A stretch of DNA of 64,000 nt from a virus (Duplodnaviria; Caudoviricetes), in IMG/VR virus record IMGVR_UViG_3300037484_000435, positions 288,001 through 352,000 of that record. One strand, written 5' to 3'. Positions 1-57,133 of the stretch are shown in pieces; position 1 is the first letter of the stretch; each line of letters opens with the position of its first letter. A program made the position numbers and the translations under genes. Below the pieces are notes generated by a model. It was not told the DNA's origin, did not search any database, and saw only the letters and a program-made list of their open reading frames with translations.

Positions 1-1
1 T

Positions 2-388: not shown

Positions 389-394
389 TCGTTA

Positions 395-18300: not shown

Positions 18301-21300
18301 CAGAAGCTGTGGAAGGTGTTAACGACTGATTACCCATACCCAACTGGGCTAGATGAACTTGTTCGGCGGTCTGCATCATACGTTCCTGAATACCGCGACC
18401 AGTCATCCTCCTCGTGACTGCCCCATATATCCCACCAGCAGCCGCTACTCCAGCAGCAAGAGGTAAAGAGGCACCAGCTAATGTGGCCATTCCTCCAGCC
18501 GCCAACGTAGATAGAACTGGATGACCGGCAGTTAATCCTAGTATGGAACCTTTGATGCCCCCCAATCCGGTTAGAGTACCAATAGCACCTCCCGCCATAA
18601 AACGATTCCGAGCCCTAAATATATTTGAAGTTTGCCTATCCGTGCCAACCCCACTAGCTATCTCTTCCATTAGTCTCTGAGAATAAAATGGGTCAACACC
18701 ATAACGACCTTGTGCGGGCTTTGCCCATTGACCAAAAGCACCTGCTCTTATACCACCATAGGCCCCCAGAGCCGCACCAGCCTCAGGTGCAATGTGCATC
18801 AGTTCCCCAAACCCTGTTGGTCCCAATGCCCCTAGAGTTCCAGCAGCACCAGCAGCCATTAGGCCTGGCCTAAATCCGGTTCCTAAAGCGGCTCGATACC
18901 CAACGGAACCAAGAGCCCCTCCTATTAGTGTTCCAGGTAATCCGGTTCCTAATTCTAACGCGGACAGCCCAGCTCCCAACATAAAACCTCTAGTGCCTCC
19001 TCTCTCGGACAAGGCCCAAGGCATACGTTCTCCCGCCCTTACATATTGTGGAGCACCCGCTCTAGCCCAACGTTCACTTGCACGATCATATAAACCTTCA
19101 AGACGTCTCCCAGCAAAAGCTCGCCCTATAATTCCGGGTTGCCAAGCCCTAGCCCCCGTAATCTGGTCAACTACAGGTGTAGGTTGTAAAATATTTCTAG
19201 CAGCACTTACAAAGGGCGAAGCAACTCGGCTTATTGATTGAGTAGCCGAAACACCTATAGCGGATTCTACCCGTGCTCTTACATTTGTCCGGAGAAAATT
19301 AATGACGTTGTCAAATACACCAATAAACGATTGTTTACCTAGACCTTGTGTCAAACTTAATTCAATAAGTCTTAATGAATCAGCTAATTTAAGTGGCCAT
19401 TGGCTTAAGCGTAATGCAGTAGACACACCCAGATTATTAATACGGTCTGTAACAGTGGTGTCCGCAGCCCATGCTTGTAACCTATTGATACCATCTATCC
19501 AACCACGCATAGTCCTCCCTACTGCCCCCAATGCACCACTCAGCCCAAGTAAACTACGTTCAATAACAACCCCTGCAGTTGAGGACATACCCGGAAGACC
19601 ACCAATAGATGCTCCTGCGCGTCCTGCTAAACTAGACAATCCTTCTGCAGCCCAAGCGGTGGGACGAAGTGCCGTTAATTTTGCAGTTGTCCCAGTTATC
19701 GGAATCATCCTTTCTCTAACAAAACTAGTTATTCCCCCTAAAGCCTCACCTTTTCCCAAAGCCCCTGTAATTGCACGAACAAAATCATACGTCATCTGCA
19801 TATCTTTTTTAAGGTTACTCACATGGGGAAGTAAAGTCATTACACCCGCCAAACCACCTATAGCTGCCATTCCAACTGGCCCCAAAGCAGCTATTGAAAG
19901 AAGTCCCGCACCACCCAACATAGAGCCACCCAGCACATGCCCAGCCACACCAGTGCGAGGTCCCACAAGACCACCTAATGCAGAGCCTCCCCTAGTCCCT
20001 GCTCCAAGAAAACCACTAAACATAAGTGAGCTTATTACAGTAGGCATTAACCCACCTAAGGCGGCTCCTACTGCAAACCTGCGTAGTCCACTTCTCCCTA
20101 ATGTAGGACCTGCTGTCCCTTCCGGTTCTCCATTTACTAATCTCTGGTACCATCTGGAAGACTGTGCTGGAGTAGTAGCAGGAAGCAACTGCTGACCAGC
20201 CGAGGTTTCAAACTGCCGAGGGTCTCTCATAGCCCGTTTCCAAATATCACCTTGAAAATTAGGCTGAGTTGACCAATCGGCAAATCTAGGTTGCCGTTCT
20301 CCGTAGCGTTTTGCATCTGTTATGAGGTTCTCTAGAATACGAGGGTCGCCCAAATTTGTTTGTGTTGGAACTGGATGTGTTGCTAGGAAAGATTCGGGTA
20401 ATCCTTTTACCAATCCTCCCACACCTTGGAAAGCTCCAGGATAAGCCCGTGTGATCAATTTAAAAGCCATATAAGCAGCAGCAGCAGTAACCGCCGCACC
20501 CATAAAACTCATGCTTTGCGACTGCTCAATGGAAGCTCTAAGCAAACGAGAACGTGGGGCCAACTGGTCATCACTGCCTGAACCTATTACACCACCAGCT
20601 GGAGCTGCGGCCCGCATGACTGCTGTGTTGTCCGCGATTTGTCTTAACCAATCTGAGTGGTTCAACATAATACGTCTATCCCAATCCGCAGATTGTGATA
20701 AAGATTTTAAGAGAGAATTACCAGCCTCAGTAGCCTTTAGGATATTCCCACCAAAGAATTTCTCCGCAACTTGACTGCCTAGATACGCCCCAACACCAGC
20801 TTGTAGCGGTCGAAGATAGCGACTAGGCTCTGGCATTCCTCCTTCCATAATTGCTCTAGCCCGTGTAGCTTCTCTTTGTAACTTGTCTCGTTCAGCCTTT
20901 TCCTTTTTCCACTGTACCAGATCCCTTTTAGCCAAAAACATTGGATCAAATCTATCCTTCATGGAAATCTCTTCTATACCAATTAACTTAGAAAGCCTAT
21001 CCTCCCCAAACACGTTACCCAAGGCGTTGTTTATCCTTCGTCCTATATGAAGGTCAGATATTCTTTTGCTTATTCGACTTGGAAGATTATTAGTTAATGA
21101 GTTAATACCCTCCATCCAAAGACCACCCAAATCAAAATCTTTCCAAACTCTCTCGGCCATGGGAAACTCGGGTTCTGGTCGGCTAACGGCAGGCGGCCGA
21201 GGTATATTCCCCCATCGTCGTTGTTGTTCCTCCATAGGGGTTCCTAGTCTCCTATTAGCAGCGATTGTCGCGGTTTCTCTCTCAAAGTTTGGTACGGGCA

Positions 21301-24300
21301 TACCAACCGTTTGCTTGGCCCAGTCACCCCAACTGATAGGTTGTTCACCCGCTAACCCCATAAACTGTCTTAAATGAGTTCCCCAAGATGCTGTTGACTT
21401 TAACTTATCTCTCTCTGAAGTGGGTCCGCCGACGAGGGTTCTTCCAATGTCTGGAAGGAATGAAGTTAAATCATAAAGCGATCCCACTGTACCTCTCGCT
21501 GCCCATGCTGGAAAACTGTCTGGTTCCTTCGGTTGGCCCATCATTTGTAAGAAATTTTCTCTATCCTGTTCTCCCAATAAATCTTCACGTAATCCCGACT
21601 CAGGCATAAACCCTGCCGGTGTGAATCGCTTAGTCTTTTTAGCTCTCTCCGCTACCGTCCTTAATCCACGCTCTCGCTTATCAAAATCATAATAATTTTC
21701 TACCATTGCTTCTCTTAGTGGATCTTGATAGGGCTTTACATAACCGGCGTCTTCTTCAGCCACTCTCCAAAGAGGGGATGGTTTCTGCCAATCAAATCCC
21801 CTATCCTCCCTTACTCCTATCGCCCTAAGAAATCTATCTCCCAAATGTGAACCTTTATCCTTGTAGGTACTTTCATAAGAAGAAAAATCGGGGGATTTAG
21901 TTACGTAATCCATGGCCCCAACGATATAGTCACTTATCCCCTTACCTGTTTTAGAAATTGCTCCAGAAACTTTTGTTTCAACGGAATCAGAAAGACCTTC
22001 GGCATCTTTCCCCAAATCTCTAAACCAACCACCCAGATCGAGTCCAATAGTCATTTTACCCAAACCGATAAGATCAGTCCACGTCGACCAAAGTTTGTCT
22101 ATAGCTTTGGACACCACATCCGCAGCGGGCCCGACAGCTTCTAAATCCATACTAACCGGTTTCCAATTCTGTGATAAGTTAGACCATGCTTCAGATTCAA
22201 TATCTACTGCAGGGGTTTTTACTCCGATGTCCCCAGCCTTAGTCTTGGGGCCTAGTTTACTAGTATAATACTGTTGCGCTTTTTCAAGGAACTGCTGATC
22301 CCTTTCTTGTGGCGAAGTAAATAAATCTTCAAAAGCACCCATCCAACCAGACAAACCCTTTTTCTGTGTAAATTGTTTTCCTACAATGGGTTCCCATTTT
22401 TTGTCAAAATTGGTAATCTTTGTTTGTGCATATTCGACAAAGCCTGGAAGTGCATTAGATATGGCCTCCGACGGCACTTTTTGCTTTAACAAGTTAGAGT
22501 TCGGTTGCCCCTCGACAAGCCTTTGCCCAGAAGTAGAAGCCAGTTGTCTATACTGTTCTGCAAGCTTTAACCTCTGAAATCTTTCTGGTTCCGATAAGTT
22601 CTTCTCGTTAGCAGAAGCTAAAGTCTTCTTATAATCCGCTGTATATTTATCGTAATCTGATAGTAGTTGTTTGTCCGATTTATTCGCTGTGGCCGCAGAC
22701 CTATTTAAATCTTGTAATTCAGAAATAACTTTCTCAATTAAATGTAGTTGTGAAGTTTGTAAACCAACAAGTGCCGCATCCTCCTTCTTCCCTTCTGGAG
22801 CTGTACCTATAGATCTTAATATTCTATCCACATTTTCTTTACCTAAACTCTCCCCGAGTCTCCCACCCAATTGCTCCTTTAAGTCTTCTGCCATAAGACG
22901 GGTGCGGGTATCGGTACCAGCCAGAAGTTTCTCTGTTTGTATATAACGTTGGCCACGCATTTCAGTTTCTGACTGACGCTGAGTTACACGTGCGTACTCC
23001 GGATTAATGATACCTAGCTTTTGTTCTTCGGAAAGTTCGGCCCACGCTTTTGGTTTGGTAGGCATCTTTACAGGTAACCTATCCTCACTTTCAAAACCAA
23101 CTTTAACACGGCGTGCTGCTACCTCGGCCCGATCTTGGGCTATTGTTACTTGCTCATCAATTTTTGCTTTTGCAATAGTGTTGAATGTATTCTCCCATTC
23201 CTCTCGGACCTGTATTAAAAACTCTAACTTACGTTTTTTTACTAAAAGGTCCTGCATCTCTTTTATCTTACTAGCACTCTTATCAGCACTAGCCGTGTCA
23301 GAAGTATACAGTTTCCATTGCACATCCATATCCCTGATTGCTTCAGCCACTTCCCACATCGCATCTTGTGCTTTCCGGCTACCCTCCACTTCAAACAAGA
23401 ATTTTTCCCCCAGTTTTAAAGCCTCATGTCCCTGAAACTTAGGCATAAACATAGCGGCCCCACCACCAGCGTACTGTTTAGTTTTTTCGTACTCTTTGCC
23501 TATGTCAAACATACCAGCCTGTTTACGGGACCAAGTTTCGATTTTACCTTGTAAGTTTTCCCAACCAATTCTCCGTTCCTCTAAACCTCCGGGGGCACGA
23601 CCTTGGGCATAGGGAAGCTCGCCGGGCTCGGGCATAATCAACGGCATAGCTTTTTCCGGAGAAAGCGCACCTGTCTTATAGGCCTCTTGGGTTAATTGTG
23701 TCCACCCCATTGTGTCCCCTGGCTTAATACCCTTTGCTCTGGCTGATTCTACCTCTTGATAAGCTATCTTAGTCATAGTGGTCCAATCTTGTGGTTCTTT
23801 CGTGTTAAGGATTTGTTCATTGGCACCCTCACCAACAGCACCAACAGCCACATAATACTTACCCTCACCAGCACTAGTTGCAACCAATGCCTTAGGTTCC
23901 TGCATTGCCCCACGTGTAACCCCTTCAGTAATAACTTCTTTTGCTAAACCTTGTTGTTGTAACATCAAGTTCCAACGTTCTTGTCTAGCCAAAAAACGTT
24001 TAGCAACTGCAGATTCTTCTTCTCCCCCTGTTTTTGGGGTAGCAGCCTCTATCCGCTTAGCTTCGTCTTTAACCCACCCCATTACACCCTTAACTGTATT
24101 AGATAGAGTTGTAAAGGAACCTGTTATTACAGTTTTTATATCTGAAGTTCCTATTGAAGATAAGAATGAAAATGCGCCTTGCACCTTATTGGCGATGTCT
24201 GGGCTAACTGCTCCGATAGAGGAAACTATAATATTTGAGATGCCACGAAAAGCACTACTCAGACCTTCAGCTATGATGTTCCCCATTCCCTTGGTTGCAG

Positions 24301-27300
24301 AAACAAGATTTCCTAGTAATCCTCCAGTCAGTTCGTTATAAAAACCCCCAATAACCCCTAAGTCTTCTTTACCTACTCTTCCAAACGCATCCTTTAGATT
24401 ACCAAATATAGCGTCCCTGATAAAACTACCTATATCAGTAATAAAAGTGGCGGGTAATCCTACTGTTGTTAAGCCTGATTGAATCAATCGGTAAGCTTGG
24501 TTAGCATAATCCTTTACCCCTTCACCAATACCAGTCATTACTTTTATTAAATTTTGAATGTTTTCATTACCCAAAGACATCCGTAATGAATCCAAGACAT
24601 TATTTTTCAAATCACCGAAGAAACTCATTAATCCTTCGGAAATAGTCAAAGCCAAATCCTTTAATACTTTTTGTATATTAGCAGTTCTAGTCTCAGAAAA
24701 CATTTTAGAAATTAATGCTCCGCCAGATTCTGCTGAAGATATTAATGCTGCTGCTCCAGTGATGGTTTTGGCGTACCACTCGGAAATAACTCTTCCACCT
24801 GAATTTATCGCCGCATTAATTGCTCCTGTAAATTGGTCTGCTTGAGGTTGATACTGGTCAAGCATCCCATAAAGCTCTTTTCCTTGTGGAACCCCGAGTC
24901 TCTCAGGTAAATTAGATAAGGAAACATACTGTTTAGAAACCTGATAATTGCGACCTGTAAGCGCATCGTATCTATTTTCACGACCAAACATGTCCCCGTA
25001 ACTCTGCGCTGGTTTGGTGGTTATAGTTTCTTGGAGTTTCTCTAAATTCCCTCCAGTAAGCTGTTCAGCTACCTGCCGCATAGTGTCTAAATTCCTTCCA
25101 GCCTTTACTTCAAAAAATTTATCCAAGCCTTTGTCGCTAGTTAATTTCATAAAGTCACCAGCAGTAGTACCTTTTCCAACTCCTAAAATATCTTGCTCTA
25201 CTTTCATCATGGCGGCATCTAATTCAGCGTTAGCGTCATCAAGCTTCTTAGAGATATCTTTCATACGTCCGGATAGAAATGGTGGGATCATTCCAGTTTG
25301 TGCCCCACCTTCGTACCCAAACTTCCCAGTCACCCCTAGATAAGGAACAAATCTCTGAGTGTTTATAGTTCTTAGTGGTGTAGCTCCCAACATTTGGGCC
25401 TTTTCTTGCGCAGCTTTTAATTCGCCCATTTGTGAAAGCAATGCTTGCTGTTTTTCGTAAGGAGTTTTAGGCAACAGTGCTTCAGACCATTGCTTTCCGA
25501 CTACCGGTATAGTTTCAAGTGCTGATTGTAAAGAGCCCCTTACTTGATTCGCCCCAGTCCCAGTTGGAAATATAGTGCCTGCCCTAAGTTTTGCAAGATC
25601 AATTTTTTCCATGTTTTGTAAAACATTCAGCTGTGATTGAAAGACATCTAATAAATTACGGGCCTTAACAGTAGTGTCAAGTATTGCATTACCAAACACA
25701 TCATACCCTTTTGCTAGGGTTGGCACCATCTGAACACTAGCACGAGTAGCCTCATCCTCTGCCTTTTTAAACTCCGCTATTTTTGTCACCACAGACTTAT
25801 AGTTCTTTGACATGCCTTCGCTATATACCAGCCTATCTCGTTCCTTTTCTGCACCGGAAGGAAGGTTTGGGCCAGCGGCTGGTGTAGTTAATTGTTTTTC
25901 AGTTTCCAGCAATACCTGTCTTTTGGTTTCCGCGTCTGTCCATTTCTTTTCTAAATCCGACATTTCGGTAAATTGTTGCCGGATCTGTCCTGGAGCATTC
26001 ATACGTGTTTGGTAACGACGCAACGTTGATTCTGGTCCACCAGCCACATCTTGTATCTTTTCTCTGCTAGAGTAGGCAAATCCAGCAGCTAAACCTAACG
26101 GAAGTAGACTTCTTATAACTCCAGTCCCAGCCCCCGCAGCTGTCCCCATAACTGCGCCCATCACCTTTGACGCGAGAGAGATAGAACCTATTGCTGCAGC
26201 TAAGGGTAATAGTTTATCACCAGAGTCTCCCATCAACCCCAATGCTGCAGTAACACCAGCCAGAACGAGGCCAAGATTGCCAGCTGAGGACGACATAGAA
26301 GAGAACATCGAGTTAAACGTCCTACCTGTGGCCAGAGTCAAATAAGCCATCTTACCTAAAGTGGTAGAAGCATCCCCCAAACCTCCAATGTCTTTTACAC
26401 TTTCGACCGCCCCTAGTGTACTTCTAATGGGAGATACTGCGAATTGAGTAATACCAGAGACGGCACCTGTGGCACCAGAACTTAGTCCAAAATTCTGTAG
26501 TCCACTCATTACCTTCTCGATTTGACTAGAAAATGTTGCGAATGTACCTAGTCCTAAAATAATCTGTTTAATACGATCGGGAACCAATGTAAAAGCCCCA
26601 ACCAACCCTCTGGTAGCATCCGTTAAAACTTTCATTGGCTCAATAGCAAGCTTTCCGAAATCAGTGTACATTTCCTGCATAGATGCTCTTAATTGCTGAT
26701 ACTTTGTATTAAGTGTGTCCAACTGCAACTCCAACCTAGCCTCAGTAGCTCCTTGTGAGTTCATTGAATCAGAAACCGAATCTTGTGCTTCCTTAAAATT
26801 GTCCATCAAAGTAATAAATGCGTTATAATGACGGGCACCAGCAATAACGCTAGCATAATTTTGTCTTTGAGCATCCGACATTGTTTGCCATTTGACATTT
26901 AACTCCTCTAGGAAACGCATGCCGGGTTTTAATTCACCACTCGGTAACAGGGTGTCCATCTTAAGTTCATCTTTTAATTTATTTCTTACAGCTGAGGTCT
27001 GCAAATTTTTAAACATGAACCTTAAGGCAGTACCAACCTCCTCCCCTGTCTGACGTGTCACAACAGCAATAGCCGTGATTATACCATTAAGTTCGTGAAA
27101 ATCTACACCAGCAGTTCTAGCGGCGGATCCAGCTCGAAGCATACCACTTGCTAACTCCTTAGCTGTTATTGCGTGCTTAACGTCAACATTTATCCATGCA
27201 TCTAAATATTTTTGAGCGGCGCCCATCTGCTCACCGTATTGTTTTGTAGCTGCAGTCAAGTACTCAGTAACCTCAGCAGATTTCATGTCAGTAACTGTTG

Positions 27301-30300
27301 CCGCCATAACAGCCACACGAGTTCGGTCAATGATTTCAGCTTGTTTTAAACCTTGCTGACCAAATACTACCATAGCATCTAGAACATCTTTGACATTAAC
27401 CCCCATACCAGTGGCCATACCAAAGGCAGCATCTCTAATTTTATTCAAATTAGTAACTTGTGGATCTGTGACCTTTGCTATATTCATTATGGCCGTCTCT
27501 ACATCTGCCATTGTGGAGACCATTTTTTTGAATTCAGTCGCTACAGTACCTACAATTGCAGCGGCCCCGCCCCACTTGGTAATAGTTTCTACAGCCCCAA
27601 AAAATGTCTGTGACTCGGCAACTTGTTTATTCATGTCGGTAAAGTTTACTTTAACTCCGTTTGCCGCCAATGAAGTTTTAGTTAAGTCCGCTCGAATCTT
27701 TTCTAATACAGCCCCAGCCTCATCTTTAACCTCTAAGTTTAAAGACATTGCTTGGCCCTCTTTCATATCAGGACTAGTAGCAACCTTTTGTTTGTAGTAT
27801 TCTAGTAATTGCTTATTTCCAGAAACCTGTTGTGGAACAGACAGCCCCATAGGTATGATAGGGGCAGCCGCCTGCATCATCGGGTCAAACCGACCTGAGA
27901 ATTTCGTTTGTTGTGCGGGTCCTCGGAATTGTTCTTCAAGGGACTTCCAATATCGGAGACTCTCAACAGTAGTATTGGGGTCTCGACCTGCCTCGTGCAC
28001 TGTGGAACGTAAATAGCCATGAACACCAGATATATCTTTTGGTACATTGGTTGAGGTCTTTAAAATCCCACTCATTACTTCTTGGTAAATAGAAGTGGGG
28101 CTAATTCCGGTAGGCTCTAAACTCTGAAGAGCTTCTACTGCCTTCTTAGATACACCCTCTAACCCTTTGGACAGGAAACCCCCCACTGAGATTACATCAC
28201 TGAAAGCTTCAGGACGTCCGAGGGAAACATTCTCACGATCTCCAGCACCTAGGAAACCACCAGACCGGTAAGTTCTAAAAGGATCCGATAGAGGATGTAC
28301 AGCTGTTGAGGACCTAAGAGCAGTAGCAACATATTTGATGATATATTCATCGATTTCTTTACTTAAATGGGCAACAGTATTTTTGTTGCCGGCTTGTGCC
28401 GCGGTATTTAATTCATTCCGCAAACCTTGTAAATGGTTCAAATAAGTTTCAGATATATGGGCCAAAGTTGCTTTCTGGGATTTTGCGACCTTACTTTTAT
28501 CAGAAGTATCCACAGTCACAGTATTTTGTAGAGATTGGAAAGAACCCAATACTTGGTCTAAAGTTTTACCTTGCATGCTACTGGGCACTACATCTTTTAT
28601 CTCTGATGGTAATCTCCAAGGAGAACGAGCAGAAACAGGAGTATACCCCCGCAACGTAGGCTCCTCAAGCTCTGCTTCTTGTGCTGGACTATAAGAAGAG
28701 CTTCCCTCGTAATAATCAAGCCGTGCTCTTTCTCTTTCCTTTCTAAGTAAAGATGTTCCAACCTCTTTCCCAAAATATTGTCCTGCCAGTAAACCTCCTA
28801 TACCAAGACCTATCTTGCTTATGGGACTAACACCAGCCTTGAAACCTGCAATACCACCAAGTAATGCTCCACCTCTCGACATCCAAGTTCTATTCGTTTT
28901 TAATTTATCCACATATTCTGGGTCCATATACTCAGGGTAGAGAGATTCCATACTACCCTCATCTGCTAAATCTGCCCTCTCTTTGTCTGAAAGCCACTTG
29001 TCCACCTCGGCACCGCGTGGTCCCTGTTTACCGCCTATACCAAAAACTTTTCTTTCAATTTTCTCACCAATATGGCCCCCAACAACACCACCACCAAGAC
29101 TACCAGCCAGTGCACCTAGAACACGGACTAAGGTTGCCGCCTTAGGCCCGCCGCCGCCCATAGATCTTAAGGCCGTTGAGGCTGGAGCAGTTAATCTAGA
29201 ACCTAGAGCAGCCCCCATAGCAATAGTTGCGGCCTGAACAATCTGCTCAGGTATTTCGCTAGCTATAGCCCTAACGGGAGAAACCCCTTGCGCAACTTTC
29301 TCCTTTACATCGTAAGCCCCAACTGCAAAATGACCTAAAGCTGGAATCATCTTAAATGCGCCACCGGCCACACCTTTTAATGCATCAGTAAAATCACTTT
29401 GTCTCAAAGCTTGTCCCACATCAGACATACCCGTCCCGAAAGCCTCAATTGGCTGTGTAACTAGGCCCCTGAGCCCCCTAATACCACTTAATAAAGCACC
29501 AGGTCTACGTGATAAACCAGATACACCACTAGAAGCCATTACTCCAGACGGAACCCCCCAGCTTTCATTATAAGGCATACCTCCTAGACCAAGATGTTCA
29601 ACCGCAAATTTACCTATACCCCTATTTTTTGAACCCAATAGATTACCAGGACCGTAGATTTCTCCTACTTGTCTATTAAATTCTTCCATAAGACCTGTGC
29701 CAGTCACATCTCTACCGGGGAGCATTTGTTTTGCTGATTCATACACACTAGGTAGTATTTTGAATGATTTTTCTAAGCCTTCCTCGGTAAAATAGCGTCT
29801 AGCCATCAAAGCTCTGGCCCCCATACCCAGACCTTGGGCAGTTGATTGTGCAGCACTAACCGCCTGTGGAACACCATAGGCGAGCAAGTCTACACCACCG
29901 TGGGTAACGTCTGCCGTACTTCGTAAGAATTTCTGGGATACAGGGGGTGGAGCAGGAACCTGCCCAGTAGACATGTGGTAAACCATTCTATTTGCAGCTG
30001 CCTTTTTTATTGCATCTGGACTTCCTTTTTGACTAATAGCTTCCTGAACTGTTTTCTCATAATCTAACGCTGATTCAGCTGGGCCAAGACGCTGCGCGGT
30101 ATCCATCCATTTAGTGGTGTCAAAAGGTGACTCTTTAAATGAATCTGGATATTCCATCATCCTGCTAATCTTTTTAAATTCTAAATCGATTAATTCTCTT
30201 ATGTTTTTTTCCGTTAACCCACGAGACCTAGTCCGTCCTGCTTCCAAACCCAATCCTGTAGTACCCCGATATGTAGGAAATTCCTTTAGACCAGCACCTA

Positions 30301-33300
30301 ATCCAGACAGTTGTTCAGTAATCATATTTGACACATTTTCATCTACACCAGCAATGGATTTGTAAGCACTATAGGGAGATTTCATAAGGGTCCAAGGCAA
30401 GCGTAATCCGAAAGATGTTGCCCCATACCCCAATTGTGCGCCGCCTTTCGCAACACTTCCTAAGGCGTGTGTAAAACTTGGGGGAACTTCATTTCCCCTA
30501 GAAAATAACTTTTCTAACCCAGTGTCCTTCAAAATACTTTCAACAATATTCTGTGGTATACCGTCCTTACCCATCGTTCCTCTCGCCAGTGCACCTAAAT
30601 TCTGCCGTAATGCGAAAGCAAGACCCCTAACAGTTGATGGGTGCATACCAACATAATCAACTGGCCGATCAATAGATTTGGTTGGTTCAATCCTCATCCC
30701 GTAAGGGTCCTTATTCTCAAGAAGTGATTCTTTAGTATCAAACCTTCCCAAGGTTATGGGTTCTGGCATATTTATTGTGTAAGGGCCAACTTTAGCTTCC
30801 CCCTCTAAACTTAGTAATGCATTGCCGTGGGTTTTCTTTCTCAACAATCCCACCAAATGTGGGTCAATACCCTCTAGCATTCTCTGTGGGGCACCTAAAA
30901 ACCTCTTCTCTCTTACCCCAGGATGAGATAAGACTTCTAGTGCTTTACTTACTTCAGATGGATCAAACCCTAAAGCAGCGGAGACTAGCCCTGGGGTTCC
31001 AAGAGATACCTCAAATTTACGCGACTTGTCTTCTGCTTCCCACTCAAATGTTTTCTTCTTGAGAGATTTGGTCCCCTCGAACAAAGGCGAGTAGGCCTTC
31101 ATAGCCAAATCCTGCTGTAATCTTCCTTGCAAAGCCTGAATTTCTTGAGTGTTACTTTTCGACATCTTCATTTCTGGGTGTCCAGCAAGGATTTCTTGCA
31201 TGGCTTCCCAACGTGCGGCGGGGGATTTACTAAAAGGCTTCCCAACCTCCCCTGCCCTCTTCTGGGCCTGTTCAAACTGTCTTTGATAAACATCCTTAGA
31301 TGTACTAGACATTGCCTCAGAGATAAATTTATCTACAAGAGGACTCGATACAGCCCTAGTCTTCCACATTCCCTTGACAGATTCTGGGGCTTCATTAATA
31401 TCTAAGTGCGTTTTTTCATGTGCGTATGTTTGTTGGATTGACCTTCCAATACCTTCTTTTTCAGTTCCTTTAGCGGACATATAAGCCTTAATAATTTCTG
31501 GTGGCATGTATATCTTACCGCCCCCACCAAGACCCACAGCAAAACCTTGTTTTAAGTAATTAAGGTTACGGTCTTGTGACATACCACGCTGTCTAAAAGG
31601 TTCCGCTGATACCGTCAAGTTCCCACCCTTTAGGAGGTTAGCAACCGTGTCAGTTCCCTTGGCAGGAGCAAAAGACGGTAAACCTTCGAGAGAATTCTCC
31701 TCGGGCGTTCTAACAGACATTTGTTGAATTTTTGCAGCTGCTGCAGAAATACCCAAAGAAGCTGGAATACGCAACACCATTCTACTTACTTCCCCACTTT
31801 GGTCTGAAAACCATAAACCTAATTGAGAAATTTTATCTATAATAGCAGAGTAGTGTTTACCTAGATCTACACTAGGTACATTTTCAGATACGGCGTCATA
31901 TGTTCTGTATAAGCCCGACACGACATCATCATACATCTTACCAACACCACCATAGAAGTTACTCGCAAAATCCTCAACTTGTGGTCGTTTAGAGAGTATA
32001 CCAGGAACAGTATCCATAGCAGTTCCCCAGACCTTTTTAGTAACATCCGTTGCATAAGGAAAAGCGGACTCATCCCATTTTCTAAAGGTAGGTCGTGCAT
32101 AACCTTCAAAATCTTTCATACCAGACCAAGCTGCTGAACCAGCGGCATTTACACCACGCTTAGCCAAATTCGTAACACTATCAGGAATATATTCAGAAAT
32201 TTTCCCCACTAAGTCTTTTGTAGCTGACCAACCTTCACCTAAAAGAGCTGTACCCGACTTAACTATTTCTGAAGATCCTATAGTCTTTATAGCTCCCACA
32301 AGAGCTTCAACAATAGGAGCAATCATTGGGTAACCAGTATAAGCTGTAGCCCCAGCCATGGTTCCTGCGCCCAAACCACCAAGGCCCAGCATTGTCATCG
32401 AAGCAGGTAACGCATATGTTGCTGCAAGAGCTGCTCCGCCACCAATCAGGGCCGCTTTACCTAGCCCACCAGCCATGCGTCTCCATAAAGGCTTCTTTTC
32501 ATCAGCAGGAGCATTTAAACGAGGTTCATCGAGGTTTTCCTCTCCTTCTGCGGGCGTATTGCTACGGTAAGTTTTTTCAGATGGAGTAAATAATCCCCCT
32601 ATCCCACCAGTTACCGCACCCCATAGCGGGGCCGCTTTTATAACACTGGAACGAGAATCTAGAAAACTTTGTGGTAATAGATTGCTACCTTCAAGCAAAC
32701 TTGACGCACCATACCACCCAGCACCAGCAATTGAAGACACAGCAGCACCAGAAAGAGCACCTTTTAACATTTTCCATATAGGTCTTTCTTCATTAGTAGG
32801 ATTCAACTGTGGAGTTCTTGACACCCCCGCTGATGTTAATCCAGAAAGGGCCCCAACCGCTGCTCCCGCCCCCGTAGCTAAAGGTATGTGTTGGAGACCT
32901 AGTCCATAAGCCATACTTCCCACTATAGGGGCAACAGCTGCCCCTATCAAAGCCGATCTCCCTGCACTTTCTAAAAACCCAGTAGGTTCCTGACGTAAAG
33001 GAGCGTAAGCTTGGGTACCAGGTGTTAATCCTCTATTCATAGCAATGTTTGCTAGTCTATCGGCGGGCTTGTTTTCCTCACGAGGAACATAAGAGAAAGA
33101 CACATTGTCAAATTGTGCTGCTAGCACATCCGCCTGAGCCTTAAGTTCTTTTATCTGCTCATTCTTCACCTTGAACTCATTTCTCATCTGTCCTACCATA
33201 ACTTCAGAGTCTGATCTTACTTTTATGTTTTGAGCGGAATTCTTAAGAGCCTCCTGTAAACCCATAATGAGGCCTTGGTACTCAGCAGCCATAGAAGTCA

Positions 33301-36300
33301 TTTCCCCAAGATATTTATTGACTTCTGCAATAGTCTGTCCCTTAGGATTTAATAGGACAGCACCAGCACCAGAAGGTCCCGGATTACCACGGGACCCAGC
33401 ATCAGTATATAGTGTATAAGGTTGTTGTGCAGGGGAATAATTCTGTAGATTTTTTCGCATAAAGGAAAGTTCTTCTTGTGGGGATGTCCCGATGGCCTCT
33501 CTTCCGGCTTTTTCTGCTACTAGCTCTTGTACCTTTGCGAGTTCATCCAAAACTTCTTGATCCTCATCAGTACGGAGACCTCCAGCTAGAGCCTCTTCTA
33601 GGGCATTTGCTGGCTCTTCCTCCCCCCTATCTCCGTATTTTTGCATATAATAATTCTGTATTTTCTTTGTATCTATACCAGGAAACTCTTTTCCAGACAT
33701 GATATCCTGCGCGATAGTAGGAGCGGAATAATCTATTACAGCATGCCCTTTTTCATGTTGCATTACGTTCATAAAAGCACGCATCTCTGCTCTATTTGTA
33801 GGGGAGAATAAACGGATATTCCCATCTTGGTAACGGCCTTCCCCTGCACCAAGCGTATCGTCTATCTCAACGTTAGGACTAAAACCATAAAACTGTTTAG
33901 CCCTTTCAGGATCCCTTTCCTCCATTGGCCTTACTTTGGAAACTAGCCACTGTCCTTTTTTAGTATCTTCGCCCTTCGGCTCGTAATTAAGAATATTGTA
34001 AGTACCATCAACCAAACCTTTAACGCCTTCCAACCTTACTGTGACATACCCTTCTTTTACACTTTCCAAAGTAGCCTTTCCTGTATCATAAGTTGCCATA
34101 TGACCAGCTCCATAAAAACCTTTGGGAATATCATATTCTCCTTTCTGGTAATAATCTATTGCGTGGTGTGCTGTAGGACCAATTGCTAATCTAGGCTTTC
34201 CTTTTTCAGTAGGCATAAACTCTGGTACCGCCCATGACTGAAGCTGACCACCAACCTCAATTCTCATATCATGGTGTGGCCCTGCCCTAAAGGCATCGTG
34301 TTTATGAACTACAAATCGGCCCACATCCCCTTCTTTGGCTTCCCCAGGAAACATAAATCCTGCCTCTTTAGAAATAGGCACTGCCTCTGGGTACTTAGGA
34401 GCTTGTCTCCTTGTATTTAGAACTAGAACTGGATCGTAAGGTAACTCAGGCATTCCTTTACCAAATATGCCTTTGCGTAATTCCTCTTGTGTAGCTACAA
34501 CTGCATCTTTGGCAAATGAAGGTATTGGCTCTACACTGGGAGCCTGGAGTAGGAACTTAGTTCCTTTCTTAAATTCTCCTGCCCGCTCAGGGGGCTGATA
34601 GAATTTATCATCTAAACCTTTAAGGTATTCCTCCATACGCTTCTTAGAGGTTTCTACAACGGGCCAATCCTCTGGATAGAGACCTTCCTGCTTTTGGACA
34701 AGAGATGGCGAAAAATTCTTGTAAGAGTCCTGATCTATCTCTTCTTCAGTTTGATATGCGGGAGAATATGATCGCTTTCCTTCTAACACCCTCGCAAAGC
34801 GTTCTTCTATTCTCTGTTCCGCGGATTCTTGTGTTCTCCAAGGATAACGGTTTTCCTCATTAACCAGATAATCTTTGGTTTTGAGTTTAAGCATTCTTGG
34901 GAAACCTGTTTTTGGATCAATTTCACCCAAGGCTTTAGCAACTACACCCTCCTCTATGCCCTTAAATTGATCTTGTTGAGTATACACCTTTTGTGCTAGG
35001 TCTTTATCAACCTTACCACGATAAAGTTCATCTACAGTCTTCAACTTCAAGTCATCTGCTAGTTTTTTGAACTCGTCTACAGGGAGAGGTTTATTAGCAA
35101 CCTTGGCATCAAACCAAGCTAACTGGTCTTTCTTTCCTCCCCATTCACCAAACAAATCTACTCGATGTCCTATATCTTTTGAGTATTTCTTAAGTTCAGG
35201 AGCCAGCCCTTCTTCCATCTGTTCAATAAAAGGTTTGTATAGTTTATTAGCAGTATCGGGGTCTAATACTTTATTGCGTGTAGCATAGCCTATCTCGGTA
35301 TTTCCCCAACGTAGAGGAACAGCACTCATTTTGATTTGATGACCATGACTCTTATACTGTGCCGATCCCTCAACGTCTTGTTCTAAGAATTTTGGGTCTT
35401 CAAAACCTGTTTTAATATGGGGGTAATCGGCTGGACTAAACCCACGAACAGCACGCCTGATGTTTTCAGGTGCTTTTTCTCCAAAAGCTTCTCCAGGTGT
35501 AAATGGGGGTCCACCAAAAGGCCCTCCAGGAGATGGCATAGTAGTGGATAATCCACCCCTAACGGACTTCTCTTCTATTGCTTTAAGAAACTCATTTCTA
35601 GATTTCTGGAATCTCATTGTATAAAAGTCTGGTGGTTCTATATCCAGTTCCTTCAGAATATTCTCCATTCTCTTCTTGAATACCATATTAATATAGCGAG
35701 TGTAGCCACGATTCTCACCATATATTCCTTCAGCATAAAGGGCTTCCAGAGGCTTTTCAGATTCGCTAGTTATCTTCTTAGCCTTCTGATCAAAATGAAA
35801 TATACTCTGCCAATCTTGTGATGTTAAATCAAAGGCACTATTAAAAATCTTTTCAACATCATTTCTTACTTTATGTGTGGGTTTAGATAGAATCTCTTCA
35901 AGGTCAACACCCCCACCAGCACTTGGCCTAAAAGGCCACATGGACTGCTCAGCGGAACGTGGTATTGCGGTATTCACACGAGATTCAACTTGGCTTAGCC
36001 GTAGATCTTCCCAGTCCTTTGGTAATCCTGCTCCTATGTGTTCAAGAATCTGCCCCTGGCGTTCCTTTATCACATTATTTATAAAATGTGTAACTCCTCG
36101 GCTTCCTCCGTAAACGCCCTCATTGCGCAAGGAAGAAATGACATCCTGATATGGTGTATCCTCGGAAGGAGACTTCATCCCACGAAGAACTGGGTGTGCT
36201 TTGTACACGCTCTGCCAATCTTCTTGGCTCAGCGTTTCGGTATTTTCCTTTACCGCTTCCTTCCAACTTTCTTTAAATAACGGGGAGAATGATGCAACAA

Positions 36301-39300
36301 GGTCCTGAGTTTTACCCCTTCCTACAAGTCCCTCAGATATTTGTGCAGGAAGGTTGACACCAGTTAAACCAAAAAAGCCTGAGCGGGAAGCTCTCCTAAG
36401 TGGGCCAATACCAGAACCATAACCAGCTTCCCCCGCAATATAAGAAGCTGAGGCCTCTTCGACTGCTTGTTTTCTAAACGCCGGAATTTTACGCAAGGCT
36501 ACGGTAACCTCTATATTGCTCGAATCTTCCATAGAACCCAAACCCGCCCCTTCTAAGGCTTTCTTAACCATAGGGCCGTGCTCTCTGCTATATACTAGTT
36601 TTTCAATTAAACTATCTACTTCTTTTGCATGGCTTGACTTGGGATCAGAAACCCTGTCAATCACAGATCTTAAGTAATCAGCTTTAACTCCTTCCCCCAT
36701 ATCTATGTACTTCAGAGCAGTTCCTCTTCTGATAATCTCGTGGGCTCGATCCATAGCCTGTGTTAACTTGTCGTTGGCCGTAGACCTCTCATCTGGGTTA
36801 CGAGCAAGCATACGTTCACGGAGTGCATCTTCAAAGGCAGTTTTTATTCCACTATCAATATAAACTTGGCCAGTTTCTTTGTCATAAGAAAATTTTCGTC
36901 CCGCTTTAGATTGTTCTCCATAAATTCCTTCGGTCTGCTTCGAAAAAGTTTGCACCTGATTAAGTAAACCCTCCACCTGATACACTTCTTTATTCATTAT
37001 TTTCATCATCTGGTCATGTGCCACAACAAACTCTTCATAAGCTTTCATTGCGGGACTTTCAAAGGTGTATTTCTTCTGTTCAGTGGCCCCACCAAAAGTC
37101 CCTATCATTTCTGGAATTTCTATCCCTTTACCCTTTTTATTTCTTAATACATAGTCAAGCACTTCAGCTTGGGATAACGCAGGACCCCCAGGAGTGTATT
37201 CATTTTCTATATCTGATCGTTTAGCATAGGACCCTACGGCCATCGCGGCCCCACCGGAAGTTTTCATCTTATACATAGGTTGCAAACCCCTATATAAAGT
37301 AGAAGTACTTATTCCAGGTTGTATAATTTCCTCACTAATATTCCTATAATCCCCCTTCCTCACTTTCTCGATACCTTCTCCCATAGCAGCAATCCTAAAA
37401 CCTATTTCTTCTTTAGATAATTTCTTACCTGATGCTTTTCGCATCTCGTCTATTACCAGCTGTGTAATATCATCTTTTCCTACTAAAGCTTGGAAATCAC
37501 CTTCGTTAAATTTGAACTTGGTTTTGAACCCTAAAGTTTGGAGTGTTTCATCCTCATAACCTGGCTTCCCTGCAACGAATCTAGCAAGACCAAGAGATCC
37601 TTTTTTAGATAAGGTGGCGTCCCCCGCCAAACCTGTTGCGTAAAGTTCCTTTACATTAGCAACGGACATACGCATCATTTGGTCAAAAACATTTTCAAAC
37701 ATAGCACGGAAAGATGTTTTCTGTATAATATCTTCTATTAATTGCTCCCGATCTTTGCCCTTTGTGGATATACCGTATTCTTTAGATTCGCTCTGTAATT
37801 GTTCTAAAGTGAGAGGACGTAAAAACTTTAGTCTGTATTTACGCATTGATTCTTCTTGTTGTCCAAAAAGAGCTTCCTCACCAGCGCCTTGCATACCACC
37901 TTTATATTCTCCCCAGCCACCGTGACCGGCATCAAGAGCCGATGTTAGCTGATCCAAATTACCAGTGAAAAAAGCTTGTTGAACTTTGGGGCTTAAATCA
38001 GAACCAGCGGAACCATGCTTACCACCAATAACTCTCTGGATAGTATCCCTCAAGAATTCCCCTAAAAGAAGATTGTAGTTCTCATGCAACTTGGGGGTCA
38101 ACCCCAACCCCTTCGGGTCTGCCCCTCGATACAATAAACCTATACGGTTAAAGGCTTCATATCCTTGTCCCATATCAACTTTATGCACGAAATGTTTAAG
38201 GGAGTCTTCCGCAATTGTTGAGGGGTCTGTTTCATGTATATCTAGAAGATTTTTCTTGGCGGCTTTAGTAATCTCATCAACGTAGTTCATGCTCTTCCAG
38301 CCGGGAGACGACGCCGACAACCTATACTTCAAACTAGCAGGTAATTCCTCTGGAGATAGTTCAGCGCCCTTAACTCCCAACGAGACCGCAGATTCAGGAA
38401 CATTGCTCTTTTGAATATTTTCGTGCATAAACCTACGAGTTGTACCATAATCTTTTAGTTGCATCTCATGGATACGTTTGAGTTCTTCGTTAGCTTTCTG
38501 AGTAGTAGCGGCATGAATAGAAATCATATCACCATCAAAATCTAGCGTCATACTGGCTTCATGGTAAAGCGGTAATAAATCTTTTGAAACTTTATCGATT
38601 TTATCAATATCGTCTTGTAACTTACCGACCTTAGAGGTGAATTTACCTCCGCTAGTTTCAAGTTCATTTTCAATCTCTTTGACTTTCTTTTCCCTTAGTT
38701 CTTCCAAAGCGTCCCGAGTTTTATTCATTGTACTGATAACTGGGTAATCCCCGATAGGTAAACCAGGAACAGCAACAGACCCAGACAAATCTTTCATCAT
38801 ATCATCCACCGTTAATTTTAGAGAACGGTAACTAAATTCATCTGTAGTAGGTTGTCTATTAATAAGAGCATAAACATCATCAACCTTACTTTGTAAATCA
38901 GGGGTCGCCATACCTGCTTTTTGTAACTCCACCAAATCTTTTCTACCAATACGTACTTCCCCTTTACCGATCCATTGTGAGGGGTGTTCTTTTTTGAATT
39001 CTCCCACATTCTTGAGAGATTCAGACATTTGACCTATTAATTCCTCGGAGCCAGGTATTTCTTCTTTGAACTCTTCCAAACGCCCAATACCAGACCTAAT
39101 AGCCTCACTAGGGTCATAAGGCCTATGCTGTGCCGTCAAGTATAAGGCTGGTATCTTCTTCTTCATAATGGTATTTGAAATTAACCCACCTCTACCGTAA
39201 ACTGTGCCGGACAATTCTTCATAGTAAGCCTGCAAGTTTCTCATTATTTCGCCATATTGTAAATCCAGAGCAGTTTTTGATGTGAGACCAACATTTTGAC

Positions 39301-42300
39301 CCCTAGCATCAAGTTTTGGTTCATATAATCTGAAATCCTTCACAATCTTACTCAATAACTCTGGGCTAACCAATTCCTTTACAGCATAATTTGGATTACG
39401 CCCCTCAGATATATCTTCGGACACTGTTTTCCCTATCATATTTGTATCTTGGGTATAGATTACTGAACCAGAAAGGAGGTCCCTCAAAAGACGTGCTCTA
39501 AAGTTTAAATTAGACACATTATCTTCGAGCTGGGAGAAGTATTTTGTATAAGCTTCACTTACTGTTATGCCCTTCTTAAAATCTTCTTCCAAGGATTTAG
39601 CGTGCTCTTCTGGCAAGCGAGAATATAAAGTTGGAAACCATGTTTTTTCTGGATTTTGAGGATCAGCGATCAAAGAAGACTTTGCGGAAAATTGTGGCAT
39701 CGGCATGTTCCCAACTAACCCTAGAGCCTGTTCCTCTAATTTTCCTAGAAGTTCTTTTTTAAATGGTATATCACGAACAGGATGAATTCTATTATAGAAA
39801 TCCCCTAACATAGTATCTACAAAAGTTTTTTGTATTTCTTCCACTTGTGGGGTCTTAGCTGGTTTTTGTAAAAGAGAGTGTTTCCTTACAGACTCGATTA
39901 ATTCAGATAGGTAACGGGCATCCGGAGAAGGTAAGATTTCTCCAGTTTCTGAAGTTACATATTGCCTTGCTTTAATTTCTGGAATTTCAATTAATTTTTT
40001 AATTGGCACCACCTGCTTTCCCTCTTTAATTCCAGCCGCTACCTCTTCCTCACGAGCCTTGCTTACTTCTTCGGAAGGTTCTGGCAAACGAAGCACCATA
40101 GATGGCCCATACTTGAAGGCGTCAAAAATGGTTCGAGATAAATCTGCTACTGTAGCTTTTCGTTTTAGTGGCGCTATATACTTGTTGGAGCCTTCATCTA
40201 CCAAGTCTTCTGGAGTAATAACTGTTTTAGACCTATCGCGTTCTAACTCTTGGCTTCGTAATTTAGAGAATGACCTGAAAGCATTTAGGTAAGCCCCAGC
40301 TTCTCTGGCATCAGGAAAGGCCCTCATTGTAAATTCATGCTCTAACGCCCCGCCTTTGGGAAATAATTTTTTGAGACCAAACCAACCATGGGGATCAACA
40401 GTCATTTTAGATTCACCAGACTCTAATTCCTCTTCTCCTTTGGATAACCAAGTTTTTGGCTCTTTCATTATCATGACATGCATAGCCCCAGCTATTGCTT
40501 TCTCTAATTTACCTTCCTTATCCAGAATAAACTCTTCCCCGTATTTTCCTTTAAGCCCTAAAATATCTTTATATAACTCGGCTAACTTACGGGCCTCAAC
40601 CCCAGAAGCTGTATTACCTACTGCCACTTTTGCTAATGGGTCCCTTTTAATTTGGTCAATTAAAGTCTCATCAGGAAGAGCAACAGATCGTAGGTTACCA
40701 ATAATATTATTCGCAATCATTTCTGCTAAATTTCCACCAATCATGCGAGATTTTTTTCCTATTCCAGAAGCAGATACTTGCAAATCTACAGGAACATCTC
40801 TGGTCAAATCTCCACCAACAACTTCCTGATATGCTTTACGTACTTTACCCATATCAGCAGAAATAGTCTTCACCTGATCCGTAGCAGTCTTCGCACCCTT
40901 TAACACACTCGTCGGAGCTAGTCCTAATCCCAGCACTTTCGATACAAATTCACGCCTCTCGTCTACACTCGGGGCATCCTCTCCTGTGAGCTTGCCTGTC
41001 CCGTATTCGATCGGTGTAATCTTCAAATCCTTTAAATGCTCAGAAGACATCATAATAAGATTTCTTGTACCTTTTATCATTTCTAAGGCTTTCTTTGCTT
41101 CAGCGGGATCCACATCCTTCCTAGCCTTAATCATTTCAGATAAAAGTTCTTCAAATGTTTTTGGGACCTCTCTCAGCATACCAATATCAGAAAACTCTAA
41201 TCTTGGGGCCATGCCTTTCTTAGCCTTTTCCACAAGAGAAGATTCAGCTTCAGGACCCATTCTTCTGGCCACTGTTACAGCGACCCCCTTCATAACCTGT
41301 CCCGTTGATATCTTTCGTGTCTCATGGCCAAGGTAAGCATTGAGAAGCTCTACAATGTTTTCTTCCACTGGGCCTTTGGGTGATTGAGACCACCGTTTTA
41401 CTATATCTTTTACGAATGTCTGGTCCGCAAGCTCTTTGGATTGTATGGGTGCTCCAAAAATATCGTGCCCCACTTCCTCTAGATACTTTATTATACTCCC
41501 CTTTAACGCCTCTGGGGTAGATTTAAGTGATGGCACAACCATCTTCTTAAATTTAAAGGTGGCTAATTCCTGTAACCTCTTACCTATTTGGTATAAATCC
41601 TCGTACCCTGCAGAGACATCCTTTAACACAGTTGTTACATTCAAACCTGTTCCATAAGGCCCCCATTCTCCGCCCTTAATAAAGCCATGAGCTTTACGAG
41701 AACGAATAGCATTAAACTCTGGACCAGCTAGAGAATCCCAAGCAGCCCCAGTAGGACGAGCCGGATTAATAGAATAGCCAAAGGCCTCAGTTTCTCTGGG
41801 ATCGTAAGAAGCGAATGGTTGTAAACGTTTACTACGAAACATAGACTCCATGAAATGATCACCAAAATCTCTCTTGCCCGCTGCCGACGCTTCATTAAGA
41901 CCCACAGTTGCTAACTTCTCAATAGTGGGGCCCAACCTCCGTTGAGAAGCTTCGGTTTGCCGTAGAAATTCTTTCTGGACTAACTCTTCCATATCTAGAT
42001 TTCGTGTAACAATAAAACGTCGTAATGCTTGCAAATCAACAGGTACTCCGTAAGAACTTGGTCCCGCGTCTATACCAGGAATTTTTGGTTGAATAGTAGT
42101 AACTTTGGCCCTACCATACACTTCATGTTTTTGCATCGCCTCATGCTCTTCCGGAACCTTCTCTTTAATTGGGTCAAACACTTTCTTAAACCTTTGTGGC
42201 AGTAGCTCTTGAAAATATGATTCATTTCCTAGACGGCCAGCAGACGAAAGACTATTCCTAAGTTTCTGCAGTTCATTACTGTCAGTCTTAGAGTAAGTTG

Positions 42301-57116: not shown

Positions 57117-57133
57117 TTTATCGTCCTCCCCCA

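Follow-up and report, generated by a model that had tools for sequence, protein, structure and literature searches.

Introduction

Among the enzymes known to be delivered by phage virions, RNA polymerases, ADP-ribosyltransferases, and anti-restriction proteins predominate. In the Thermus phage P23-45, such an enzyme is built into the tape measure protein itself: the N-terminal RNA polymerase of gp96 transcribes the pre-early genes after entry (PMC10770324). In bacterial end joining, the 3'-phosphoesterase (PE) domain of LigD strips 3'-phosphates and trims 3'-ribonucleotide tracts, thereby healing 3' ends at DNA breaks (PMC3082917). The RNA ligases Rnl2 and Rnl5 seal 3'-OH/5'-phosphate nicks in duplexes, for which they need an RNA 3'-OH strand and accept both a DNA 5'-phosphate strand and a DNA template; breaks in RNA loops are handled by Rnl1 and Rnl4 (PMC4408790). 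Here we describe a pair of domains related to these enzymes in a stretch of 64,000 nucleotides (the window), which corresponds to positions 288,001-352,000 of the IMG/VR record IMGVR_UViG_3300037484_000435, a 545,322-bp record of an uncultured phage. The original prediction for this DNA had placed an RNA ligase adjacent to a complete LigD PE at window positions 33930-35370 and had read the two as a virion-carried RNA-repair module. We found that both are domains of a giant tape measure, that the pair looks catalytically intact at the level of sequence, and that the virion probably delivers it along with the DNA as a small nucleic acid end-repair kit.

A ligase and a LigD-type phosphoesterase in one giant tape-measure ORF

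The ligase-PE region fell within a single minus-strand open reading frame (ORF) of 14,711 amino acids (aa), without internal stops under translation table 11 (Table 1). The predicted pair is indeed side by side; however, it consists not of two genes but of two domains of one giant polypeptide. The tape-measure core of this polypeptide was recognized by both Pfam and PHROGs, and 12 further tape-measure phrogs matched the same region as phrog_4211. Besides the core, the ORF has two HExxH motifs, an RNase H domain, and a DnaJ domain. The ORF thus joins enzyme domains and a tape-measure core in one chain and belongs to the class of tape-measure-fused enzymes, as does the corresponding ORF of a relative with a 256-kb record.

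The PE domain scored 59.4 bits against PF13298, for which the cut-off is 31.1, and matched 3P43 (CkoPE, E 3e-16), 3N9B (PaePE, E 3e-15), and 3P4H (E 2e-13) in the PDB, so that both the family model and solved structures place it in the PE superfamily. Its score against TIGR02777 was 79.6 bits, which is under the equivalog cut-off of 144 and indicates a divergent member. The residues essential in PaePE are His42, His48, Asp50, Arg52, His84, and Tyr88 (PMC3082917). In the present protein, H3411, H3419, D3421, R3423, H3456, and Y3460 align to these six positions, and all of them are invariant in five relatives. Beyond close relatives, the nearest nonphage sequences were LigD proteins with primase-polymerase and DNA ligase domains. 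A tblastn search of 50,697 GenBank phage records returned no PE-like sequence, and the whole ligase-PE module likewise had no match there.

N-terminal to the PE, every ligase motif quoted in the original prediction (YKSHG, FGEW, WFDAK, EGVV, and LKLKTKDY) was present, and the lysine of motif I has the number given there. YKSHG, which contains the predicted nucleotide-accepting lysine K3060, begins at aa 3059, followed by FGEWGG at 3127, WFDAK at 3139, EGVVAK at 3194, and LKLKTK at 3214. About 185 aa separate motif V from the PE core, in agreement with the ~180 aa first estimated. The score against PF09414 (RNA_ligase) was 40.1 bits in the full piece and 45.9 bits for the domain alone, well within the RNA_ligase superfamily given the curated cut-off of 27, and the ligase domain of the 256-kb relative also matched this family above the cut-off. 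When the domain alone was compared with Pfam at E<=5, PF09414 was the sole family matched; the one further hit, to an unrelated family, scored 15 bits and is at chance level. The DNA-ligase model PF01068 did not match the domain at the same threshold, which sets it outside the ATP-dependent DNA ligases. Motifs I, III, IIIa, IV, and V of the covalent nucleotidyltransferases were all present, were kept in all relatives, and fell on near-invariant columns of a 60-sequence family alignment; K3060 was invariant in the relatives and throughout this alignment. The protein-language-model neighbors of the domain in the Atlas were exclusively viral PF09414 clusters. A phmmer search of the PDB with the ligase domain gave nothing at E<=10, a word-indexed homolog search found no homolog, and a comparison of the ligase half with 1.84 billion representatives matched fragments of close relatives only.

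A fold model of the ligase was built with AF2 on an alignment of the domain and 59 PF09414 family members. Its core reached a pLDDT of ~90, compared with 33 for a single-sequence fold of aa 3030-3530, and the usable model covers the ligase part, to aa ~3250. In a Foldseek search with this model, RNA ligases ranked first (E 8e-8 to 1e-5) and DNA ligases appeared from 1e-4. VIA-align gave Z scores of 13.8 for T4 Rnl2, 13.5 for NgrRnl, 12.3 for REL1, 12.2 for Rnl1, and 11.7 for Rnl3; the RNA-ligase families ranged from 11.1 to 13.8, all above the DNA ligases (Z<=10.1). The Rnl2-type all-helical C-terminal domain (T4_Rnl2_C) had no Pfam match at E<=5 on aa 3030-3260 or 3215-3410, and the Rnl2 equivalog TIGR02307 had none at E<=1, so the domain is not assigned to the Rnl2 family. 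It is not assigned to Rnl5 either, since TIGR02306 did not match and the Rnl5 N-terminal OB-like domain PF21189 had no match in the giant ORF, although a free-standing 364-aa ligase of the same phage does match PF21189. After motif V, the model contains one helix only, with low confidence beyond it. These results suggest that the ligase is best described as a divergent, accessory-less nucleotidyltransferase of the RNA-ligase family, nearest in shape to the nick-sealing enzymes. The predicted combination of a ligase with a complete PE was therefore borne out, both domains being above the curated Pfam cut-offs with every catalytic residue kept. The ligase is also not of a DNA-only type, with PF09414 as its sole family and Rnl2 and Rnl5 nearest to its model, and by sequence neither domain appears catalytically dead.

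Conservation of the cassette in related phages

The order ligase, linker, PE, HExxH, and RNase H recurs in the 12,316-aa tape-measure ORF of the 256-kb virus record, in the giant ORF of a 211-kb record, which exceeds 4,154 aa and runs past both ends of the stretch analyzed, and in ENA contig_78987, where the ORF was called in pieces. In the ENA contig, the pieces are six overlapping genes (758, 597, 587, 427, 696, and 1,965 aa), a call that is probably due to assembly frameshift errors rather than to real gene boundaries. In three genomes, the putative RNA polymerase, ligase, PE, and RNase H follow one another in an unvarying order.

The ligase and PE windows were 63-71% identical to the 256-kb relative, while the identity of most other 100-aa windows was 0.3-0.5. 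Relative to the 211-kb record, synonymous sites were saturated (pS ~0.8), and we therefore give pN and pS instead of dN/dS. In this comparison, pN was 0.08 for the PE (85% amino acid identity), 0.19 for the linker (71% amino acid identity), and 0.24 for the ligase, against 0.32 overall. These results indicate that the ligase-PE pair is under purifying selection and is among the best-conserved parts of the giant ORFs. The linker had no Pfam match at E<=5 and no match in the Atlas, and its modeled part was of low confidence save for one helix. Its conservation, though no family is recognized, suggests that the linker matters. Furthermore, the cassette is retained in the 256-kb relative, where RtcB is absent and the tape measure contains the only RNA ligase, which indicates that the cassette is maintained independently of a general RNA-repair system. 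The present genome, the largest of the three, has by contrast a full set of free-standing RNA-repair genes.

Virion carriage and a proposed mechanism

Because the enzymes are fused to a strong tape-measure core, their carriage in the virion and their delivery into the cell are reasonable to propose. We infer both from this fusion, from the precedent of P23-45 gp96, from the domain order, and from the avoidance of cysteine. In three genomes, every enzyme domain precedes both the hydrophobic segments and the tape-measure core along the chain. Only 2 of the 14,711 residues are cysteine (0.014%), both near aa 11,900, a depletion of ~100-fold that includes the enzymes. Elsewhere in this genome, cysteine makes up 1.76% of the residues in ORFs of 200-1,499 aa and 0.9-1.6% in four other giant ORFs. 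Such extreme depletion would be expected if the chain has to pass through the envelope in an unfolded state.

In the mechanism that we favor, tentatively and at somewhat less than an even chance, the conserved and predicted catalytically competent cassette heals and seals ends, acting from the N-terminal enzyme block on the entering phage DNA or on its RNA:DNA hybrids. This block would comprise the putative RNA polymerase, the ligase, the PE, the HExxH segment, and RNase H. When the tape measure exits the tail at infection, the N-terminal cargo would reach the cytoplasmic side just before or with the DNA, in line with the proposal made for gp96. The Mn-dependent PE would there convert 3'-phosphate ends or short 3'-ribonucleotide tails to 3'-OH, and the ligase, adenylylated on Lys3060, would seal 3'-OH/5'-phosphate nicks in duplexes with ribonucleotides on the 3' side. 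Tape measures enter in few copies per infection. The copies of this one would probably be tethered at the entry pore, and with so few entering, the likeliest substrates would be local and single-copy, namely, nicks, gaps, and ends of the entering genome or RNA:DNA hybrids on it. The logic would be that of bacterial LigD (ribonucleotide addition, PE trimming, and sealing), rebuilt from different parts. Some mycobacteriophages circularize their genomes through host end joining (Pitcher et al. 2006, as cited in PMC7719229).

A more far-reaching version of this mechanism is unlikely in our estimate. In that version, the tape measure would bring a full LigD-like break-repair machine of nonorthologous parts, in which a two-barrel RNA polymerase adds ribonucleotides, the PE trims them, the RNA-type nick ligase seals, and RNase H clears hybrids, and which reseals the phage genome at entry, whether the breaks came in as nicks in the virion DNA or were cut by host restriction or nicking defenses. 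If true, LigD-like entry repair would be a form of anti-restriction by repair, carried as injected virion cargo.

Several points weigh against the action of the cassette on the entering genome. T4 Rnl2 and DraRnl need two or more 3' ribonucleotides (PMC4408790, PMC5397189), and the PE leaves one, which may keep the two activities from working together as they do in LigD. The accessory domains that Rnl2 and Rnl5 require for full nick sealing were not detected in the cassette ligase, and the closeness of the ligase model to RNA ligases is partly built in, because the model was made on an alignment of the RNA-ligase family. The archaeal PE CkoPE favors single strands (PMC3258152). The RNA polymerase neighbor is a motif-level lead given by the conserved DFDGD, and the presence of the cassette in the virion and its entry are deduced rather than taken from experiment or a proteome. 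Finally, the 40 tRNAs, RtcB, and two or three free-standing ligases show a clear investment of the phage in RNA repair, which keeps an RNA-repair reading alive.

Competing explanations

In that reading, the cassette would be an injected RNA-repair kit: the PE would heal 3'-phosphate or 2',3'-cyclic-phosphate ends, and the ligase would rejoin tRNA or mRNA, of host or phage, cut by abortive-infection ribonucleases before the expression of any phage gene. We regard this as possible but somewhat unlikely. The genome is rich in genes for translation and RNA repair; in addition to the 40 tRNA genes and RtcB, it encodes an Rnl5-like ligase, a nucleotidyltransferase-only RNA ligase, and small P-loop kinases, together with an NAD-dependent DNA ligase and a free RNase H. 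The cassette ligase belongs to an RNA-ligase rather than a DNA-ligase family, CkoPE prefers single-stranded substrates (PMC3258152), and in jumbo phages, RNA ligases often come together with end-healing phosphoesterases (PMC7824862). By contrast, the giant ORF has no kinase by Pfam, as originally predicted. Its one Walker-A-like string, at aa 2734, is about what is expected by chance and is not conserved, so that 5'-OH ends could not be sealed. Loop breaks are the substrates of Rnl1 and Rnl4, whereas Rnl2 and Rnl5 act on duplex nicks (PMC4408790), and the action of PE on 2',3'-cyclic phosphate is not documented in the PE literature cited here. The few copies of the tape measure per infection would be too few for a cell-wide tRNA pool, and the phage's own RtcB would already be able to join 2',3'-cyclic-phosphate and 5'-OH ends. 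The 256-kb relative, moreover, has the cassette but neither RtcB nor another RNA ligase. Taken together, the resemblance of the ligase to duplex-nick sealers, the lack of a kinase, the low copy number, and the gene content of the 256-kb relative displace the leading interpretation of the original prediction, a kit like T4 Pnkp and Rnl1 against anticodon nucleases. The action on the phage genome, which had been offered there as an alternative, fits at least as well as RNA repair.

Alternatively, RNase H, PE, and the ligase might serve RNA maturation rather than damage repair, trimming and joining the transcripts of a co-delivered polymerase or R-loop RNAs on the entering genome, for example, in making or removing replication primers or in RNA-DNA joining. 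The order of the putative RNA polymerase and the three enzymes, fixed in three genomes, is consistent with this, as is the action of all three on RNA 3' ends or RNA:DNA hybrids (PMC3082917, PMC4408790). However, the identity of the polymerase is putative and given by the DFDGD motif; Pfam, PHROGs, phmmer against the PDB, a two-sequence profile, and tblastn against phages gave no support for an RNA polymerase upstream of the ligase, and the best score of this region in the Atlas, 0.78, did not support a polymerase identity either. We know of no precedent for an RNA-maturation pathway carried out by tape-measure-delivered enzymes. Sequence alone hardly separates this explanation from action on the entering genome, and we consider it decidedly unlikely.

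We also give little probability to the proposal that the enzymes work late in the producer cell, or while tails or heads are assembled, and do not enter a new host as active enzymes, the tape-measure fusion being incidental or serving localization. Folded domains are too large for the tail lumen, so that delivery would require unfolding and refolding. However, P23-45 gp96 is a tape-measure-fused enzyme that acts after entry (PMC10770324), the position of all enzymes N-terminal to the hydrophobic segments and the core is shared by three genomes, and the depletion of cysteine extends along the entire chain and through its enzyme domains. For work inside the cell, the phage moreover encodes RNase H, RNA ligases, and a DNA ligase as separate proteins. 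That the domains are inactive relics, retained only as filler or structural length of the tape measure, is very improbable: the ligase is highly divergent (no phmmer match in the PDB and no Rnl2 or Rnl5 equivalog match) and lacks accessory domains, but the catalytic residues of both domains are invariant in all relatives and few parts of the protein are better conserved, with synonymous sites at saturation.

Other features of the giant ORF and the genome

Table 1. Features of the giant tape-measure ORF, its surroundings, and a comparison contig (window coordinates unless a contig is named)
Feature	Residues (aa)	Position	Strand	Basis or remark
Giant tape-measure polyprotein ORF	1-14,711	395..44530	-	Stop-free frame; homologous giant ORFs in two other virus records
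Pfam matches in N-to-C order	RNA_ligase PF09414, 3060-3216; LigD_N PF13298, 3409-3504; RNase H, 3704-3829; PhageMin_Tail, 5701-5898; DnaJ, 12582-12638			Order within the 14,711-aa ORF
DFDGD motif of putative virion RNA polymerase	1997-2001	38528..38542	-	Motif only; kept in 256-kb relative
Tandem ~130-aa domains	~2750-3000	35531-36283		Two copies; family not recognized
RNA-ligase-type nucleotidyltransferase domain	3040-3225	34856..35413	-	Motifs I, Ia-like, III, IIIa, IV, and V; PF09414 E 5e-10 (9e-12 alone)
Lys3060 codon, predicted AMP-accepting lysine	3060	35351..35353	-	Motif position (motif I, YKSHG)
Linker	3226-3395	34346..34855	-	Conserved; matches no recognizable family
LigD-type 3'-phosphoesterase (PE) domain	3396-3543	33902..34345	-	PF13298 E 4.5e-16
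HExxH segment, putative zincin peptidase, possible processing site	HEKGH at 3592	33551..33898	-	Motif alone
RNase H domain	3704-3829	33044..33421	-	PF13456 E 1.7e-25; PF00075 E 1.3e-10; phrog_531 'Rnase H' E 1e-15
Gly/Ala-rich hydrophobic stretch	~3830-4300	31631-33043		~470 aa
Tape-measure core	5634-6098	26237..27631	-	PF10145 E 2.4e-26; phrog_4211 'tail length tape measure protein' E 2.9e-64
DnaJ (J) domain	12582-12638	6617-6787		
Homing-endonuclease-like genes		45637-46542, 46606-47748, 56316-57134, 59561-60211, 60359-61525	- (all)	phrog_4645 or HNH
Gene order in contig L016: terminase, portal, 1,371-aa topoisomerase IB + ATP-DNA-ligase protein, 2,924-aa PrimPol/2H/HExxH/C-terminal PE protein, then DnaJ protein		L016:3893-16775		

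Within the giant ORF, the HExxH segment had no Pfam family match, and its motif is kept as HEVGH or HEKGH at the same place in relatives. Just before the ligase lie the tandem domains listed in Table 1, followed by a Gly/Pro-rich junction (…GGPFGG…GEAFGE.AP.NIRR). The same junction occurs twice in the relative fragment P0008, around an insertion of ~300 aa, and may mark the limit of a module or a site of processing. The Gly/Ala-rich hydrophobic stretch after RNase H is missing in the 256-kb relative, and a different segment takes its place in the 211-kb relative. A DnaJ domain is found near the C-terminal end of the tape measure.

Outside this ORF, four other very large minus-strand ORFs (2,161, 3,403, 2,539, and 5,054 aa) are located at C1:222243-277052 of the genome, 11-66 kb downstream of the giant gene, and at least five homing-endonuclease-like genes are dispersed among the genes just upstream of it. 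At C1:464001-476000, RtcB, the Rnl5-like ligase, and the free RNase H form a loose RNA/nucleic acid island with HU, an RRXRR protein, a YqeY-like protein, and a T4 gp30.3-like protein. The 364-aa Rnl5-like ligase is ~25% identical to the cassette ligase, and a recent duplication of the phage's own ligases as the source of the cassette ligase was ruled out at identities of <=25%. A genome-wide search for Rnl1 with PF09511 gave no match, although the control of this search matched nowhere either. The tRNAs are mostly clustered at 2-82 kb and 515-545 kb. The tRNA at C1:47126-47202 has a CTA anticodon that would read TAG, and it is a possible amber suppressor.

Comparison with known systems

Virion-delivered enzymes decide the first seconds of infection, and a ligase with a 3'-end healer, if delivered, would add nucleic acid repair to their list. 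Should the cassette act as we propose, the LigD phosphoesterase family would gain its first role outside cellular end joining, and the locus would offer a natural setting for learning the purpose of the nick-sealing RNA ligases Rnl2 and Rnl5 (PMC4408790, PMC5397189). The ligase-linker-PE unit, compact at 500 residues, may in addition serve as a tool enzyme. P23-45 already provides an example of enzyme cargo in a tape measure, whereas a ligase and PE as such cargo are described in no paper that we found; full-text literature searches returned none on a ligase or LigD PE in a tape measure or an ejected phage protein.

The closest precedent for the carrier is gp96 of P23-45, a tape measure of 5,002 aa that bears a virion RNA polymerase at its N-terminal end (Chaban et al. 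2024, PMC10770324). Both proteins are giant tape measures with N-terminal nucleic acid enzymes, and both have a DFDGD motif, metallopeptidase-type motifs, and membrane segments, with a cargo proposed to work at the entry pore. By contrast, a ligase and RNase H are unmentioned in the text of the paper on gp96 (PMC10770324), the present protein is three times longer, and its RNA polymerase-like region has no detectable sequence similarity to the PDB or GenBank phages.

With regard to the enzymes, bacterial LigD has a PE of the same family with all six catalytic residues and likewise joins a 3'-end healer to a sealer of ribonucleotide-ended 3' strands (PMC3082917, PMC8656161). The cassette nevertheless differs from the LigD systems of nonhomologous end joining, which combine PE, ATP-dependent DNA ligase, primase-polymerase, and Ku. 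Its ligase belongs to PF09414 and not to PF01068, a family that had no match anywhere in the genome; the ORF has no primase-polymerase domain (PF21686); no Ku was found in the genome; and the carrier is a phage structural protein. The ligase shares the nucleotidyltransferase fold and all motifs with T4 Rnl2, trypanosome REL1, and Naegleria and Deinococcus Rnl5, the structures nearest to its model (PMC4408790, PMC5397189), although neither the C-terminal domain of Rnl2 nor the N-terminal OB domain of Rnl5 was detected in it.

T4 Pnkp and Rnl1, which counter PrrC, share with the cassette the heal-and-seal idea of a 3'-end phosphoesterase and an ATP-dependent RNA ligase in a phage. T4 Pnkp and Rnl1 are expressed after infection and are not carried in the virion. 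The present locus differs from them in having no 5'-kinase, another phosphoesterase fold, and a ligase of the nick-sealing type. It is thus not a tRNA repair system of the T4 type, in which a 5'-kinase/3'-phosphatase is combined with an Rnl1-type ligase, and the ligase model is nearer to Rnl2 and Rnl5 than to Rnl1.

Polyvalent proteins are also huge multidomain proteins with HExxH peptidases and are thought to be co-delivered with DNA and cut into effectors (Iyer et al. 2017, PMC5512222). Their carriers, however, are head proteins linked to portal or MuF, whereas a tape measure is the carrier here. LigD and tape measures are unmentioned in the survey of polyvalent proteins, whose 2H domains were never seen associated with RNA ligases (PMC5512222). 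An independent case is the 65-kb contig L016 of an uncultured phage (Logan SRR24472968), in which a PE in a giant protein lies beside a ligase-bearing giant protein within the structural module, directly after terminase and portal, with DnaJ nearby. Unlike the cassette described here, L016 uses a ligase of the DNA-ligase family and a LigD-type primase-polymerase, encoded in two genes after the portal, and is unrelated in sequence outside the PE. From its gene content, L016 looks like a LigD-like kit of the head module, a DNA-oriented version of the same theme.

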